Positions 4,414-62,793 of a stretch of DNA of 64,000 nucleotides are shown here, piece by piece. Positions within the stretch are counted from its first letter, which is position 1, and every line of letters begins with the position of its first letter. The notes beneath the pieces were generated by a model. The model had not been told where the DNA came from and did not search any database. It saw nothing but the letters and a program-made list of their open reading frames with translations. Made by a program: the position numbers and the translations under genes. This DNA comes from an uncultured Candidatus Saccharibacteria bacterium (lineage in GTDB: Bacteria; Patescibacteriota; Minisyncoccia; Phycocordibacterales; Zambryskibacteraceae), in NCBI GenBank assembly GCA_964516975.1, contig CAZFAS010000001.1, positions 118,500-182,499 on the forward strand, in the 5' to 3' direction.

Positions 4414-4557
4414 TGGCTTCTTACTTCCCTATTTGAGAGAGCTTTTTTTGCTTTTCAAGGCTCTCTTTTATCTCCTTAATCGATGCGGAAACGACTCGAA
4501 GGGACCTTTCGATCCTCTTAGCAAGAACCATCGCCCGATCTGATGTGCCTCTTACGC

Positions 4558-5046
4558 TCACATTACCTCACTTGATGATGGGGTGAATTTCGTGTGAAGC
4601 ATCCTGTGACGGGACATTTCCCATTCAGGTGTAGTCCCCAAGAATATCTTTGCACACAACTCCAAAGGATTCATGGGCAACCTTCGATTGATCTCTTGCA
4701 GGAATGCAACTCTATTTACTCCGTGGATAATAAAGACAGGCCCCTTAAGCGTGCATACCGGGCCGTTCATTTCAAACAATTCTCCCCGCATACCAAGCTC
4801 AATGTCAGGAAATGGCTCGAATATCGCAGTATCCTCGCTTTCTATTCCTGCCCTTAGAGCTTGCGACACTTTTCGCATCCAAAATACTTCAGGTAAAGCC
4901 TTACTTTGATACTGAGGATCAATTTGCAAAGAAGAAAGCGATCTACGATCAAGGACTCCGTATAGTGTCGCCATGCCATTTGGTGCCACAGCAACCGTTG
5001 GTCGAAACAACTTGACCTCTTCACAAACTGAAGTATCCATACCCAA
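4558..5046 (-). CDS. hypothetical protein, GC-rich island gene 1
   Basis: 162-aa ORF in ~55-60% GC segment; no family recognised. Confidence 0.4.
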   Translation of the reverse strand: MGMDTSVCEEVKLFRPTVAVAPNGMATLYGVLDRRSLSSLQIDPQYQSKALPEVFWMRKVSQALRAGIESEDTAIFEPFPDIELGMRGELFEMNGPVCTLKGPVFIIHGVNRVAFLQEINRRLPMNPLELCAKIFLGTTPEWEMSRHRMLHTKFTPSSSEVM

Positions 5047-5190
5047 TACCTGTTAAATGTTGAAAGAACTTTTACTCAAAAACATAGTACATCCAAGGTA
5101 AATTATTTCAAGCTATAAATATTGAAATATAAAATTGACCCCCAATCCGCCAAAGCAGACTGAGGGTCAAAGGGTCCAAGGGACAAAGGA

Positions 5191-5904
5191 TCAGGCTTGC
5201 GCCGGAGCCGAAGGTTCCGAGGATGAAAGATCTGAATTGCGAGAGAACACCCGGTCGAAATCACCCCACCAGACCGGGCCCTCGACGGAGCTCGCATAGA
5301 CGCCCCAGCCGTCGTCGCAGCAGCGCACGCGGACCACACGAAGCACACCTTTTTGGTCCCTGATGTAGAAGATGTTGGCGTAGCCGTTGTTCAGGAGAAC
5401 ACCGTATTCACCGTTCTTCTGCTTCTCCATCATGGAGAACATCTCCGTCAAAGTGGTTTCGGATTTCTCCTCGCCACCCAGTTCGGTGATTATGGGACCA
5501 TTAACTGAAGACTTCCGCAATTTGTGGTAGCGGAGCGTCTGTTCGCTGATCGGGTCTTCGGTTTTGCCGTCGCCTGAGAGGAACCAGTTTGTGAAATTGT
5601 CGCAGACTTCCAAGATCTTCACCGGATCGTTGCGCTTGGTGCTGACCGCGAACTTGTCTTTGGCGACGAACTTGCTGGTAGTTGCCAAGACCACGACAGT
5701 CGAGACGAGCTCGAGGATCGAGGGTGTGGGTTTCGGCTGCGCCACTTGCGTGACGTTGCCGTTGGTCCAGCACGGCTCCTTGCGGAGGAACTTCTTCAAT
5801 TCCGCTTCCCACTGGTCGCCGTATTGGCCACCGAGGTTCACGATGAGCTGATTAAGCGGTCCGGTCGTGAATTCGCGGAGCGCTCTGCTGAGCATGGTAT
5901 CCAT
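5191..5904 (-). CDS. hypothetical protein, GC-rich island gene 2
   Basis: 237-aa ORF, ~58% GC; antisense ORFs in same span judged spurious. Confidence 0.45.
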   Translation of the reverse strand: MDTMLSRALREFTTGPLNQLIVNLGGQYGDQWEAELKKFLRKEPCWTNGNVTQVAQPKPTPSILELVSTVVVLATTSKFVAKDKFAVSTKRNDPVKILEVCDNFTNWFLSGDGKTEDPISEQTLRYHKLRKSSVNGPIITELGGEEKSETTLTEMFSMMEKQKNGEYGVLLNNGYANIFYIRDQKGVLRVVRVRCCDDGWGVYASSVEGPVWWGDFDRVFSRNSDLSSSEPSAPAQA

Positions 5905-6043
5905 GGTCAGATTTCCTTTCTTTTTGGTTTCCTCTACGCCGAGGAGGCACTATGGGCCGGTGTGGTCATAGCGAGGAGAGGTCCAAGATTGAGCCACTTT
6001 TCGCTATGACCAACTTACAATTCGTATTAAAGAACTACTAATA

Positions 6044-6072
6044 ATTATACAACTATAAGTTAAATTTGTAAA
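6044..6072 (-). promoter_or_regulatory. sigma70-like promoter for GC-rich island genes
   Basis: minus strand TTTACA-17-TATAAT immediately downstream of terminator hairpin; 5'UTR contains GGTCATAGCG...CGCTATGACC stem. Confidence 0.5.
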
Positions 6073-6073
6073 T

Positions 6074-6105
6074 ACAATACAAAAGCCGCAAACGATGTTT
6101 GCGGC
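6074..6105 (-). terminator. rho-independent terminator (minus strand)
   Basis: GCCGCAAACgatGTTTGCGGC followed on minus strand by TTTTGTATT. Confidence 0.45.
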
Positions 6106-6114
6106 TTTGTTCCC

Positions 6115-6288
6115 CTATCGTGGGACAAGGGAACCGACACTAGCAATGTTCTTGGTTGTACCAAGAATTGATTGCAAGGATTCAAAGAACGCGAGGAGGG
6201 TATTCTCGAATCCTGCAAAAACTCGCGGGATTAGGAACTTGAACATGATTATGGCAAGCCCCAAACCAAAGACTCTAAGTATTTTCAT
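6115..6288 (-). CDS. small hydrophobic peptide (57 aa)
   Basis: MKILRVFGLGLAIIMFKFLIPRVFAG...; stop directly followed by terminator at 6074-6105; below ORF-track cutoff. Confidence 0.25.
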   Translation of the reverse strand: MKILRVFGLGLAIIMFKFLIPRVFAGFENTLLAFFESLQSILGTTKNIASVGSLVPR

Positions 6289-6480
6289 ACTTGTATCAAT
6301 GAGGAAAGCTCGGCTGTGACGGACGAGGTCACAACGTGCCCATAATCAGGCTGCCCCCCTCTTTTCAAAATAGAATTAGAATAGAGTATAAAGAATACAG
6401 CAATTCTGTTTCAAAAAGATTGGAGGTTCCGATGATGTTATTTCAAAAAACTATATACTATTTATAACATATAAATTGGA

Positions 6481-7010
6481 AAAAGAAAACCCCGCACGCA
6501 AGCGTGCGGGGGTATGTGACAACTTGACTATAGTCCAATGGACATTCACTTGATCGTCACACACAGTTTCAGTACGAAGCAATCGTGTAATCGTCTTTCG
6601 ACAGTATGGGGATCGCTTCGCACCAAGATATGAGACATTGAGGTCTGCGTCTACACAAACAGAGAATCGTCTCATATCAAAAGAGCAGTTCGGGGGAAAA
6701 CATGAGCTGAAACGCTTTTACAAAGCACGAGAGCTCCCGTTCCAGTGACAAATACTACCTCGTAAATCAACATCTCGAATATCGTCACTTCCCCCTTTCT
6801 AAGTTACAGATATATAACCTAGAAAGGAGGCCCGACAAGCAAAGCTTGTCGGGCTTTGCAGAAAACATCAGTATTCTCGTTGTAAAACATTTTGACAATC
6901 GTCTTCTGCCAAAGCAAAATATCATTCTTTATATATAAGTCAACCCCCATACAAGCAAGCTTGTATGGGGGCGTGTGACAATGATTCGGTCGTCGTAGAG
7001 ACATCAAGTC
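6481..7010. repeat. structured direct-repeat unit A (3' of recombinase gene); similarity decays to ~7250
   Basis: ~80% identical to 8575-9190 with indels; contains three perfect hairpins (6489-6510, 6830-6854, 6944-6971) and terminator-like end on minus strand. Confidence 0.7.
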
Positions 7011-7250
7011 CATCGTCACAAAATGAACTATGTTGTAAGACATGACGAAAGCCGTCAGACACGACAAGCATCAATTCGTCTCACAACATACAAAAGAACT
7101 TGACCTGAGAACATTCATACCGTCTTCACTTAGGAAATGAACTCGATCGTTCTCAGATCAATGAAATGTTGTTTTGAGACATTGGGTGAATCGTCACTAA
7201 GACAAACAGCCTATCGTCTCAAAACAAAGAACTTTAAAGTACTACTCGTT

Positions 7251-8441
7251 TTACACGACACTCCCTGCTTCGATCTTGCTCCACTCCTTGTAGAGCCACT
7301 CAGCAAACTTCGTCGCAGTCCTCCAGATCGCCATCTTGTGGATGTGACCCTTGGAGTATCGCTTCTTTCCATCTACCACTACTGGCTCAGGGTGACGGAC
7401 TGTGATCTGCGCCTTGATCTCTTTGAAACGAATACCCCATGGAGAATCAGGATTCTTGATGAACTGATCCATCAGAAGATACAAGCCCTGACGCACTTCT
7501 GCATTCCAGTTTGCGACCTGACCTCGCGAACGACGAGCAAGGCCGAAATTTCCATCCTTTCCCTTGCGAAGCCCGACGCCACAATACGACTTGAACTTGC
7601 TCTTATTCGGAAAGCGACGGACATCACCGATACCTGAGATGATTCGAGCTGCAATCTTGGGACCACAACCCTTCACCTCGGCAAGCACCTGAGTCCAGAT
7701 TGGAAAAAGGTCAAGTGTCTGTTCGACTGCCTTTGCGCAGCGAGCTTCTTCAGCAATGAGTGACTTCAAGGTAACATCATTTGCTTCCGCATCCTTGAGC
7801 CAAAGCTCAAGCGAACCCGCTTCGTACCAACCTTCACTGCTACAAAATATCTCGCCGATCACTCGTTGCTTCAGTCTCTGCTGACAGGCAATGCGTGCCT
7901 TACGAGCATCGACAAGACTGCGATACTTCCACTGAATCGAGATCAGATCTCGATCAGCAGGAGTCGTCTCAATGAAGTATTCAGGATTAGTAGCAAACAG
8001 ATCAATGAGTAGTCCCGCATCTTCATCCTTACTCCGCTCTTCTCGAGCAGACTTCAGATAAAATGCTGGAATACGCAAAACCTTTGCTCCAATCGATTGA
8101 CCGCGAAGCGAGAGCGCGTATGCGAAGTAATCCCCACTTCCACCAAGAGTCAAAAGCACTCGGTCTCCTGACCGCAAACCATCATACTCGGATGGAATCT
8201 TCCAACCGTTCTTTCCTTCACTGCGATGACTGATTTGAACATCAGAGGGAATACCCTCTTCATTTTCTACAGTCATCCACTTCACAGGAAATCTTCCGAC
8301 AAGAAAATCGTATTCATGAGACTCACTTTCAAGCTCATACACAGTTCGCTCTCCACCATGATCGATTACGATCTGTGTCGGCCTTGCTTCTCCATCTATA
8401 GTCTTCTTGACTCGATGACGAATTCCGATGAGGCGTCCCAC
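7251..8441 (-). CDS. IS110-family-like recombinase/transposase (Transposase_20-type C-terminal domain)
   Basis: C-terminal ...GCGPKIAARIISGIGDVRRFPNKSKFKSYCGVGLRKGKDGNFGLARRSRGQ matches IS110 HhH/Ser domain; GTG start preceded by AAGGAGAG SD; N-terminal domain atypical (IGIRH instead of IGID). Confidence 0.65.
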   Translation of the reverse strand: MGRLIGIRHRVKKTIDGEARPTQIVIDHGGERTVYELESESHEYDFLVGRFPVKWMTVENEEGIPSDVQISHRSEGKNGWKIPSEYDGLRSGDRVLLTLGGSGDYFAYALSLRGQSIGAKVLRIPAFYLKSAREERSKDEDAGLLIDLFATNPEYFIETTPADRDLISIQWKYRSLVDARKARIACQQRLKQRVIGEIFCSSEGWYEAGSLELWLKDAEANDVTLKSLIAEEARCAKAVEQTLDLFPIWTQVLAEVKGCGPKIAARIISGIGDVRRFPNKSKFKSYCGVGLRKGKDGNFGLARRSRGQVANWNAEVRQGLYLLMDQFIKNPDSPWGIRFKEIKAQITVRHPEPVVVDGKKRYSKGHIHKMAIWRTATKFAEWLYKEWSKIEAGSVV

Positions 8442-8574
8442 GTTACTCTCCTTGTAGAGGTTTCGTCCTGAAGGACATGGAAAGAACTGTCAGACAATCG
8501 TATACTCGTATGTAACATACATCAACGAGATAGTCTGACCAAATAAAAATACATACTATATTGAATTTGTCAAT

Positions 8575-32629: not shown

Positions 32630-32720
32630 GAGCTTCGCAAGACCGGAGCGCGACGGCGCGAGGTATGGTCAGGAGCAAAGTCAGCAGACTTTGACTCATG
32701 ACCGATGAACCGGAATCGGG
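32630..32720 (+). repeat. GC-rich structured repeat E1
   Basis: ~80-nt similarity to 32880-32977 incl. CGCG-ACGG-CGCG hairpin and AAAGTC-agca-GACTTT stem. Confidence 0.5.
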
Positions 32721-32743: not shown

Positions 32744-32818
32744 GGCCCTATCGTCTAACGGTTAGGACAAGGCCTTCTCAAGGCTTAAATCGGGGTTCGA
32801 TTCCCCGTAGGGTCACCA
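32744..32818 (+). tRNA. tRNA-Glu (anticodon CUC), CCA encoded
   Basis: cloverleaf: acceptor GGCCCTA/TAGGGTC, D GTCT/GGAC, anticodon loop TTCTCAA, T arm CGGGG-TTCGATT-CCCCG, discriminator A. Confidence 0.85.
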
Positions 32819-32879: not shown

Positions 32880-32977
32880 AAAGCCGGAGCGCGACGGCGC
32901 GAGGCGGGGTCGCGAGCAAAGTTAGCAAACTTTGACTTGTGACCGAAGCGTACTCGCGTTTCCCCGTAGGGTCACCA
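32880..32977 (+). repeat. GC-rich structured repeat E2
   Basis: partner of E1; stem AAAGTT-agca-AACTTT shows compensatory C>T/G>A change relative to E1. Confidence 0.5.
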
Positions 32978-39742: not shown

Positions 39743-40390
39743 CTACTTCTTCTTCGGGACCCAAGTGAGTCCCATGTACCACATGTCTGTCCTCTTGTTC
39801 ACGTTGCGTGTCCAAGAAGATGTCACGGAAACTTCTTCCGTCATCGGTACCGTAAGTGCTACTGACGGAAGCGTGTTCCATGGAAGGTCGAGGAAGTTCA
39901 GCTTGGCGTAGCCAAGCGTTACCCATCGATACGAAAGGGAAACATCACCCAGATATCCGATGAGTAACGTCTCCGGATTCTGGACACCATCTTCCCTGAA
40001 TGACTTCGGTTCATAGGCCGGATACCACGCTGGCCACTGCATCGTCGAGACCTTGATCTCGTCACTACCGATCTTCGCGACCGGAACAGTGAGCCTGACG
40101 TACGGCCCAACCCAGGGCGAACCCTGGTAGTGACCGACAGACCATGCGATGAAACCAGTCAGCTTGCGTCCATGAAGATTCTTCCCCATGGCAAGCCACG
40201 CCTGCTCCTGCATGACAGCGAACTCCCCATATTCAGAGGAATCCGCTTTCTCGAAGATTACGATACCGGTGATTCCTGATGCGATGGCGCCTTCGCCAGC
40301 ACCAACGCTGACAGAAGACACACGGCGCTGGGCAGACGCGCCACTCACGCCGACCAAAAGCATCATGACAACCGCAAGAATGGTGCGCAT
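39743..40390 (-). CDS. secreted hypothetical protein (signal peptide), GC-rich island
   Basis: MRTILAVVMMLLVGVSGASAQ signal; W/Y-rich; ~55% GC. Confidence 0.5.
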   Translation of the reverse strand: MRTILAVVMMLLVGVSGASAQRRVSSVSVGAGEGAIASGITGIVIFEKADSSEYGEFAVMQEQAWLAMGKNLHGRKLTGFIAWSVGHYQGSPWVGPYVRLTVPVAKIGSDEIKVSTMQWPAWYPAYEPKSFREDGVQNPETLLIGYLGDVSLSYRWVTLGYAKLNFLDLPWNTLPSVALTVPMTEEVSVTSSWTRNVNKRTDMWYMGLTWVPKKK

Positions 40391-40514: not shown

Positions 40515-41117
40515 CTAGAAGCTAAGTCGCAATGCAGCGACCGAATTACGCGACCCCTTAACTTCAGGATCAAACGCAACCGGCACTGCCCACAACATCA
40601 CACGCTTCTTTGAGAATACAACTTGGACACGAGGTCCAACACCAGCGAAACGCTGGGCACGAACACCGAGTCCAATGTTGTTGATTCCATTCAAAGTATC
40701 TGAATGGGTCAAAACATTGTTGTTCTGTTCGAGCAAATACCAATAACCCGAACCTCCCAACTCAGTGGCGAGATACAGCGAGTGCACCCCTTTCGCCATG
40801 AAGGCTGACGCCTGCATGCGCAAGGGGTTAACATCGCTCTCCACACCTCCTCCGATACTCAGCTCGATCCATGTAGCGGGAACGTAGGTCATCCCCACGA
40901 TCCCCTCGCTCCATGTATTTGAACTGAGTGACCAGATGAACACCTTCAAGTGTTCATTGATCTTGTGCTCACCAGAGATATCCACCTGAGTGGACATCTT
41001 GTGGGACTTTGCATTATACAAGTTATAGCTCTCTGTCCAGAACGAATTCCGAGACTGAGCTTCAACATTGCATACTGCTCCCAGCATGAGTGCCACAAAG
41101 GCGAAGATTCTCAACAC
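40515..41117 (-). CDS. secreted hypothetical beta-rich protein ending in C-terminal Phe (outer-membrane-barrel-like signature)
   Basis: signal MLRIFAFVALMLGAVCNVEAQ; alternating hydrophobic strands; ...VAALRLSF end. Confidence 0.5.
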   Translation of the reverse strand: MLRIFAFVALMLGAVCNVEAQSRNSFWTESYNLYNAKSHKMSTQVDISGEHKINEHLKVFIWSLSSNTWSEGIVGMTYVPATWIELSIGGGVESDVNPLRMQASAFMAKGVHSLYLATELGGSGYWYLLEQNNNVLTHSDTLNGINNIGLGVRAQRFAGVGPRVQVVFSKKRVMLWAVPVAFDPEVKGSRNSVAALRLSF

Positions 41118-60467: not shown

Positions 60468-61027
60468 GTCGGAAAGTTCGTGGTATAATTGCTTGGTGTA
60501 TACCAAGAAAAAAAGATTAGAAAAATGAACTTACGCCGACCGTCGAGCATATATGGTAATGGCAGTAACAAGGAGAAGAAGAAAACTCCGTGAGATGGCC
60601 AGAGAACAAGCCGGCGGAAAATGTGCATTATGTGGCTACAAAAAATGTCAGAGGGCTTTAAGCTTTCATCACGTAAACCCTAAAAATAAGGATTTTGATC
60701 TTTCTTCAAGGGGTTTAACGAGATCGTGGGAACGTATTAAAAAGGAAATCGAAAAATGCGTTCTCTTGTGTGCAAATTGTCACATGGAAGTACATGAAGG
60801 CATTACGCAGCTTTCTATCAAAAGATAGATTGAAAAACGAGGTGAATTCGGGGAAACCCAATTATTGGGCAATCCCGAGCCAAGCTCTAATGAAAGTTGG
60901 AGAAGGTGTAGAGACTATCCTTTATGGAGTAGTGTCAAAAACTTGATACGAAGCGCCTCGATCCTAAGTTCCAGATTGGAATATGGATATGATATAGTCC
61001 ACGCTTCTAGCAATAGAAGAATCAGTG
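60468..61027 (+). mobile_element. group I intron (560 nt) with internal HNH homing-endonuclease ORF
   Basis: 5' exon ends in U, intron ends in G; conserved core elements P (AATTCGGGGAAA), Q (AATCCCGAGC), R (GTAGAGACTATCC), S (GATATAGTCCAC). Confidence 0.7.
60553..60828 (+). CDS. HNH endonuclease (intron-encoded)
   Basis: CxxC...HH..N...CxxCH zinc/HNH motif (CALCGY...SFHHVNPKNK...CANCHMEVH); extended -10 TGGTATAAT at 60477. Confidence 0.75.
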   Translation: MVMAVTRRRRKLREMAREQAGGKCALCGYKKCQRALSFHHVNPKNKDFDLSSRGLTRSWERIKKEIEKCVLLCANCHMEVHEGITQLSIKR

Positions 61028-61612: not shown

Positions 61613-61650
61613 CAGAAGCCGTTCGCTTCTGTGGGCGGTTTTCTTTTGTT
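61603..61650 (+). terminator. terminator (variant of repeated CCGCC...GGCGG cassette)
   Basis: CCGCC-tgaCAGAAGCcgttcGCTTCTGtg-GGCGG + TTTTCTTTTG. Confidence 0.55.
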
Positions 61651-61677
61651 TGACAAATTATATAAATGTGTTAATAT
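61650..61677 (+). promoter_or_regulatory. promoter TTGACA-16-TAATAT fused to terminator T-run
   Basis: repeated cassette. Confidence 0.5.
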
Positions 61678-61709
61678 GTTAACAGTACCTTCAAACAATC
61701 GAGGTGATC

Positions 61710-62222: not shown

Positions 62223-62252
62223 CCGCCCACACTGTGGGCGGTTTTCTTTTGT
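62223..62252 (+). terminator. terminator of repeated cassette
   Basis: CCGCCCACAcTGTGGGCGG + TTTTCTTTTG then TTGACA. Confidence 0.6.
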
Positions 62253-62320
62253 TTGACAGTTTTATATATATGTGATATTTTTTCAACAGATTATCGTTCC
62301 CTTCTCACCCATGAGGACTC

Positions 62321-62708: not shown

Positions 62709-62739
62709 CCGCCCACACTGTGGGCGGTTTTCTTTTGTT
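62709..62739 (+). terminator. terminator of repeated cassette
   Basis: CCGCCCACAcTGTGGGCGG + TTTTCTTTTG then TTGACA-16-TAATGT. Confidence 0.6.
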
Positions 62740-62793
62740 TGACAAAAACATGAATTATTCTAATGTTATCGCAGAACTTTCACCAAGGTAACC

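Follow-up and report, generated by a model that had tools for sequence, protein, structure and literature searches.

We describe a short GC-rich segment in a 64,000-nucleotide (nt) stretch of DNA from an uncultured Candidatus Saccharibacteria bacterium (GenBank assembly GCA_964516975.1, contig CAZFAS010000001.1, positions 118,500 to 182,499), the whole of which is hereafter termed the window. The segment is very probably a complete single-gene transcription unit encoding the target protein of a diversity-generating retroelement (DGR), of a kind specific to Patescibacteria: its gene, for a protein of 237 amino acids (aa), belongs to a large family of such targets and carries in its variable region (VR) an adenine-specific footprint. 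According to the mechanism proposed, RNA of a template repeat (TR) would be reverse-transcribed with errors at adenines, and the resulting complementary DNA would overwrite the last 113 nt of a putative lectin-like domain, the VR, changing about 12-15 ligand-contacting codons; the window copy would carry the footprint of such adenine-error overwriting, with neither a TR nor a reverse transcriptase (RT) nearby. With this assignment an apparent "foreign island" becomes a functionally interpretable gene, plausibly one whose hypervariable product binds ligands for an episymbiotic bacterium, probably in the recognition of a host or of particles.

A single-gene unit and its probable variable protein

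A sliding GC profile of the window, whose mean is 40.9%, shows a single sharp peak of 52-58% GC at about 5100-6000. The gene for the 237-aa protein (Table 1) has 56.4% GC, distributed over codon positions 1, 2 and 3 as 0.53, 0.42 and 0.75, and is the GC maximum among all 714-nt windows of the 64-kb stretch (z = 4.3). An initial annotation, made from the sequence alone, had flagged both this anomaly and the long spurious open reading frames (ORFs) on both strands of the GC-rich patch, and both are borne out; its further picture of a two-gene island, with each ORF at ~58% GC, does not hold. The second ORF, termed ORF162, has only 45.4% GC (z = 1.3), is parted from the first by a terminator, lies outside the conserved unit described below and lacks homologues beyond its own population. 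The compositional island is real, but it comprises one gene and about 0.95 kb (5121-6075, minus strand), not two genes. An antisense overlapping gene was considered and rejected, long antisense ORFs being, on reasoning from the sequence, an automatic outcome of avoiding codons that end in A or T.

The abrupt change in GC, the many short population contigs that end near the VR and a mosaic contig of 1.5 kb (L086, described below) might together suggest that the assembly is chimeric or contaminated by a GC-rich organism, an alternative that the initial annotation had kept in view. Three independent contigs, each from another sample (L077, L081 and L083), match the window with 100% identity over 1.8-2.0 kb across both boundaries, which makes such an origin extremely improbable. 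We give as little credence to the segment being a structured non-coding RNA and not a protein gene. GC-rich islands in AT-rich genomes are often structured non-coding RNAs, this one has ORFs on both strands of an AT-rich genome, and its leader and terminator are truly structured; against such an interpretation stand conservation at the protein level, the codon-position pattern given above, a confident AlphaFold2 model of the protein, the absence of any Rfam match at gathering score for the leader or GC-rich region (chance-level hits only, with E-values up to 5) and a coding sequence that folds no better than its shuffled versions (z = -1.8, 20 shuffles).

The modelled 237-aa protein consists of an N-terminal three-helix module (aa 1-47, with the motif FLRKEPCW), a disordered linker (aa 48-59) and a putative C-type-lectin-like domain (aa 60-225), and is without a lipoprotein or signal sequence. 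That neither protein of the supposed island belongs to a recognised family remains correct for Pfam, PHROGs and PADLOC, none of which matches the 237-aa protein or ORF162; it is incorrect for the 237-aa protein more broadly, which has 633 close homologues (65-84% identity, none with a Pfam domain) and retrieves by profile search 3,385 clusters (50% identity) at E <= 1e-3 and 723 at E <= 1e-30. A very large family, of more than 3,000 clusters at 50% identity, is thus still without a Pfam model. Its named sources are Patescibacteria (Paceibacteria, Taylorbacteria, Vogelbacteria, Kaiserbacteria and others), and the 73 genome loci all come from hosts of 34-54% GC, either Patescibacteria or uncultured bacteria related to them. 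One family member (P0122, 926 aa) contains five tandem copies of the putative lectin-like domain. At least three other types of target protein occur in loci L060-L076 (for example L060:6001-6561, L067:6001-6630 and L073:6001-6639); these share with the window family only the 47-aa N-terminal module (LGGxDGxxWxxELKxFLRKEPCW) and the leader hairpin, differ in their C-terminal variable domains and are in most cases followed by a DGR RT.

In the family alignment, invariant columns alternate with hypervariable ones at aa 186-222, and one homologue has Asn at every variable column of this region; together these features constitute the signature of a DGR VR. The closest genomic relative (L001), whose target has 83% amino-acid and 89% nucleotide identity to the window gene, supplies the remaining components: the 3' end of the target gene recurs 476 nt downstream as a 114-nt repeat, the TR, the VR and TR differ at 15 positions, all 15 of them TR adenines, and downstream of the TR follows a 344-aa RVT_1 protein with YADD and with LGNLTSQ, which fits the DGR motif [I/L]GxxxSQ. 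The same RT is present at 19 of the 51 species-representative loci with a VR domain, and the TR/VR pairs of these 19 show 11-26 mismatches at adenines and mostly 0-3 others. Complete cassettes in relatives have the 113-nt TR ~320 nt and the RT ~800 nt downstream of the target gene, the place of TR and RT being occupied in the window by ORF162.

As a reference for the window VR we used the family consensus TR (identical in L001, L009, L019 and L022), which is orthologous and does not come from the window genome. The two differ at 25 of 113 positions, 20 of which are TR adenines; at the five non-adenine positions the window VR has private bases (CGTGTG, TGC, TTC). All VRs end in CTCTCGCAA and all TRs in CTCTCGAAA, a one-base difference of the homing-initiation type, as expected if these ends are the predicted VR and TR forms (IMH and IMH*, respectively) of the site for initiation of mutagenic homing (IMH). 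We infer that ligand contact is made by the VR face of the protein.

The 113-nt TR is 100% identical in the four genomes just named (L001:11032-11144, L009:7034-7146, L019:5375-5487, L022:6874-6986), in which the RTs are as low as 62% identical and the target scaffolds 73-83% identical to the window protein. This implies that the TR is either extremely constrained or passed between cassettes.

Table 1. Features of the GC-rich unit and its immediate surroundings (window positions)
Feature	Position	Strand	Remarks
Two terminator-like hairpins	4414-4388, 4256-4238	-	predicted
ORF162 (160 aa in public annotations)	4558..5046	-	outside DGR module
GC-rich inverted repeat (16 pairs) with T-tract, likely intrinsic terminator of the gene	5125..5170	-	stem at 5170-5135
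Gene for 237-aa protein, very probable DGR variable (target) protein	5191..5904	-	N-terminal module, linker and putative lectin-like domain
VR (aa 186-222)	5237..5349	-	invariant scaffold codons alternate with diversified codons
5' leader RNA hairpin, ~59 nt	5958..6016	-	conserved, covarying
Sigma-70-like promoter: -35 TTTACA (6072-6067), 17-nt spacer, -10 TATAAT (6049-6044)	6044..6072	-	11/12 consensus positions
Terminator hairpin just upstream of promoter	6108-6082	-	predicted

Evidence on diversification of the window copy

No second copy of the VR was found in the 64-kb window, no TR in the window or its 5.4-kb extension (repeat search; blastn, word size 7), and no DGR-type RT in either of them (tblastn; unfiltered six-frame profile hidden Markov model). 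The extension is provided by a 50-kb contig of the same population (L077), which was reached through ORF162, the exact 237-aa sequence having no database record, and runs 5.4 kb past the window start; the span free of TR and RT extends from ~10.5 kb downstream to 58 kb upstream of the gene, 69 kb in total. Because an adenine footprint is present and no TR or RT lies nearby, the window copy is a non-adjacent or orphan DGR target. Its VR is invariant in the population, being identical in all members of the 90%-identity cluster (from NCBI, nine JGI contigs, Logan and ENA, representing at least five samples from four sources and compared at contig level), and no VR polymorphism indicative of ongoing diversification was seen among these cluster members and population contigs.

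DGR targets that lack an RT are common among Patescibacteria: no RT is present at 18 species-level loci whose flanks reach at least 2.5 kb on either side, and the RT-less copies share a downstream boundary just past the terminator. The VR of one of them, L016, carries a private non-adenine variant, TCCGCCCTG, of a TR located on another contig (L044) of the same metagenome-assembled genome (MAG), JBBABX01, and differs from this TR by 19 adenine mismatches and one other. Since the L016 VR bears the private marker of the L044 TR, trans diversification of RT-less copies occurs in the family, and at least one such copy has been rewritten in this way.

Several observations weigh against regarding the window segment as a DGR target unit. 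Its cognate TR and RT were not found, and DGR action is read from the footprint relative to orthologous TRs. Five of the 25 VR differences lie off adenines, and two of these non-adenine changes (W195C and G216F) alter residues that at least 97% of the family keep, which could reflect decay or simply a divergent, unseen TR. An RT may lie elsewhere in the genome, beyond the 69 kb searched, the 64 kb inspected being part of a contig of at least 186 kb. Six short contigs of the same population end in or just after the VR, and these ends could reflect microdiversity of the VR rather than repeats. Lastly, the assignment does not account for the bias in GC content at third codon positions (GC3), treated below.

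As to the present state of the copy, we lean towards a "frozen orphan" that is currently not diversified, on the grounds that its VR is identical across the cluster and that W195C and G216F fall at conserved residues. Less probable, and still to be taken seriously, is an active remote target, whose VR would be rewritten in trans by a TR-RT cassette elsewhere in the genome, as in MAG JBBABX01. The L016/L044 pair demonstrates trans diversification within the target family, the window copy retains an intact ORF, promoter, leader, IMH-like end and downstream inverted repeat, several population contigs break in or beside the VR, and the L086 mosaic with another target allele hints at more family copies in the community. 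Continued rewriting is harder to reconcile with a VR identical in all contigs and cluster members, with the five non-adenine differences and their changes at two highly conserved residues, or with a consensus-TR pattern scan of metagenome contigs, which returned 22 contigs, none from the samples of the window population, the pattern used being strict.

Two contigs with unusual joins at the target gene were recorded. Contig L084 (positions 1-125; Logan SRR23702518, same population) is an exact match to the window from the 3' end of the VR (IMH, at 5240) downstream and, on the upstream side, has 113 nt of unrelated sequence, absent from the window and from every fetched locus; the join may be an artefact of assembly or, alternatively, a rearrangement that broke exactly at the homing-initiation site. 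Contig L086, a 1.5-kb JGI sequence, is identical to the window except for 29 mismatches in a 200-nt tract within the 5' third of the target gene (5687-5885), where it matches an L001-type allele; this tract represents either recombination or conversion, or a cross-genome assembly mosaic.

Conserved control elements and the origin of the GC-richness

The promoter, the terminator hairpin upstream of it, a 10-bp stem in a structured 5' untranslated region and two tandem terminators downstream, all proposed in the initial annotation, are present (Table 1); the terminator directly 3' of the 237-aa gene had been missed. Homologous genes in other genomes are preceded by a TTGACA-17-TATAAT consensus with which the window promoter aligns, and nucleotide homology to all related loci runs from the promoter (starting at 6057-6075) to the end of the terminator (5115-5131), where it stops. 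This promoter-to-terminator unit is found in unrelated genomic contexts in many Patescibacteria and is a portable module, which agrees in part with the earlier view of cargo; that a host promoter had been wired onto the cargo is contradicted by the conservation of promoter and leader with the gene across genomes.

The 10-bp stem (GGTCATAGCG...CGCTATGACC) forms part of the base of a longer leader hairpin, in which a basal stem of 12 bp (GGUCAUAGCG.../...CGCUAUGACC) leads through an AA/CC internal loop to an apical stem. Compensatory changes affected 11 of 22 pairs in a first alignment. A covariance model (R1) built from 12 sequences scores 78 bits at the window leader and matches upstream of the target gene in 45 loci (42 unique), including loci with different VR domains. 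Covariation is strong: one pair, for example, reads GC in 15 sequences, CG in 14, UG in 5 and AU in 4. The sense strand shows G-U pairs, and the hairpin keeps its AA/CC internal loop and has a variable apical insert. R1 matches nowhere else in the window, and its matches all lie upstream of targets, a marginal one (L058) excepted. With 42 unique covarying examples, the leader looks like an undescribed cis-acting RNA motif of target genes and is a candidate for a new cis-regulatory element. The hairpin 3' of the gene is kept in 22 loci, with changes mainly between G-U and G-C pairs. It is likely the terminator and, as a candidate, may also be the GC-rich inverted repeat that is known downstream of DGR VRs (PMC5758913).

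Composition sets the target genes apart from their surroundings and from their own partners. Targets have a GC content of 0.55-0.60, compared with 0.34-0.54 in the host flanks and a host-like 0.28-0.52 in RT genes of the same cassettes. At 4-fold degenerate sites the targets have A at 0.02-0.12, C at ~0.5, G at ~0.27 and T at ~0.17; host genes have A and T at ~0.35 each. Identity at these sites is 0.5-0.87 among targets, at similar or lower amino-acid identity, versus 0.25-0.44 among RTs, whose synonymous sites are essentially saturated. Targets that share only the 47-aa N-terminal module are also GC-rich and A-poor at the third codon position, and a GC3 of ~75% persists among targets down to ~40% amino-acid identity. 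Because the targets are GC-rich in hosts of 34-54% GC while the RTs of their cassettes are host-like, GC content is no mark of a recent GC-rich donor; judging from these sequences, GC-richness is an intrinsic, conserved trait of the target genes and not a donor signature. A compositional anomaly does not always denote horizontal transfer, and here it appears as a family-specific codon signature.

Recent acquisition of the island from a GC-rich donor, under a host-type promoter, had been proposed from composition and is in our judgement improbable. It would accommodate the strong compositional contrast (z = 4.3), the occurrence of the module in unrelated genomic contexts and the lower synonymous divergence among targets than among RTs, which is consistent with recent exchange; the most divergent copies, moreover, have lower GC (0.40-0.49), as amelioration predicts. 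Yet no GC-rich donor appears among the 73 genome loci, where homologues of 55-60% GC reside in hosts of 34-54%, the RT of the same cassette is AT-rich and saturated at synonymous sites, promoter and leader are conserved with the gene, and the GC3 level holds over the whole range of divergence given above.

Our best guess is that the GC-richness reflects homogenisation of target modules, which would recombine or be exchanged often, with GC-biased conversion as a possible contributor. We prefer module exchange in view of the L086 mosaic, the discordant histories of targets and RTs (for example L001 versus L009) and the coexistence of an identical TR with RTs only 62% identical. Two other candidates were rejected: gene-wide adenine mutagenesis, since majority-A columns outside the VR vary no more than others, and selection on mRNA structure, the fold of the coding sequence (same 20 shuffles as above) not being significant. 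Adenine is common at codon positions 1 and 2 of the target gene, so the bias is a preference at GC3 and not an avoidance of adenine.

A more speculative proposal, which we consider unlikely, is that Patescibacteria DGR targets are under nucleotide-level control by a dedicated regulatory or homing-competence system. It is suggested by a leader hairpin confined to targets across VR-domain types, by the shared 47-aa module and by a GC3 independent of host and RT with low synonymous divergence. If true, the leader could bind a DGR or host factor, and conversion among dispersed copies could maintain the GC-rich body, allowing modules to spread and be served in trans.

Neighbouring features and relation to known systems

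ORF162 has no homology to any related locus, and its sole database match is its own 100%-identical cluster, with no homologues outside its population. Its interpretation as a degenerate RT or Avd remnant was rejected for want of RT similarity, family matches or homologues. The initial annotation placed the island beside an IS110-like locus and a lytic transglycosylase gene; in relatives the unit has no link to either. In the IS110-like gene (7251-8441, 396 aa) only a C-terminal Transposase_20 domain was detected. Direct repeats of ~520-620 nt (6473-6993 and 8564-9184; aligned blocks 79-96% identical, spacing ~2,190 nt) bracket this gene, each with three GC-rich hairpins (e.g. CCCCGCACGCAAGCGTGCGGGG), and ~1.1 kb (6110-7250) is without a convincing ORF; the flanks are candidates for non-coding, perhaps bridge-RNA-like, sequence or for duplicated ends.

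Elsewhere in the window, a second GC-rich spot (39743-40390, minus strand; 55% GC over ~700 nt) coincides with an ORF of 215 aa that has a signal-peptide-like N-terminal segment and no Pfam match; its neighbour (40515-41117, 200 aa, ~50% GC) also lacks a Pfam match, and neither is related to the DGR target profile. The only tRNA gene of the window, tRNA-Glu(CTC) at 32744-32818, lies between 63-nt GC-rich direct repeats (32643-32705 and 32884-32946, 86% identical). A group I catalytic intron is matched in Rfam at 60768-61020 (plus strand; 64 bits, gathering score 50). A 65-nt unit (CTGTGGGCGGTTTTCTTTTGTTTGACA...) occurs three times (61629-61693, 62232-62296 and 62718-62782), before successive small ORFs, and resembles a -35 box joined to the tail of a terminator.

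Like genomic islands and cargo borne by insertion sequences, the unit contrasts with host composition, varies in context and adjoins an IS110-like gene; unlike them, it has no integrase, tRNA or direct-repeat boundaries, its composition is gene-specific and absent from the partner RT, and no IS110-like gene was seen beside its homologues. The solved DGR variable proteins TvpA of Treponema denticola and Mtd of Bordetella phage have a C-type-lectin fold. The window protein differs from these in having no detectable sequence similarity to them, in the absence of a lipoprotein or signal sequence, in its VR motif (VxVxWxxDGWxVxAxSVExPxRWxDGxQVFSRN) and in an N-terminal three-helix module common to other Patescibacteria targets.

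The closest counterparts are the DGRs of Patescibacteria and the candidate phyla radiation (CPR), described as a Patescibacteria-restricted "DGR clade 2" with targets lacking transmembrane or known domains (Roux et al. 2021; PMC8144416) and as a "CPR set" in which many VRs remain unclassified (Wu et al. 2018; PMC5758913). Relatives of the window unit share with these the order of target with 3' VR, TR and RT, adenine-specific mismatches, the RT motif [I/L]GxxxSQ and a VR in a putative C-type-lectin-like domain; the window target likewise lacks transmembrane or recognisable domains (PMC8144416), and the single-base IMH/IMH*-type end difference and GC-rich inverted repeat downstream also agree (PMC5758913). 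In contrast, neither TR nor RT accompanies the window copy within 69 kb, its VR does not vary within the population, and RT-less copies make up about half of the species-level loci here, one of them served in trans. The window gene is, then, a DGR target of the known Patescibacteria clade in an orphan or non-adjacent configuration; modestly new are the leader RNA motif, the shared N-terminal module, a GC3 bias found throughout the family and decoupled from the RT, the frequent occurrence of RT-less copies and trans targeting in a CPR genome.

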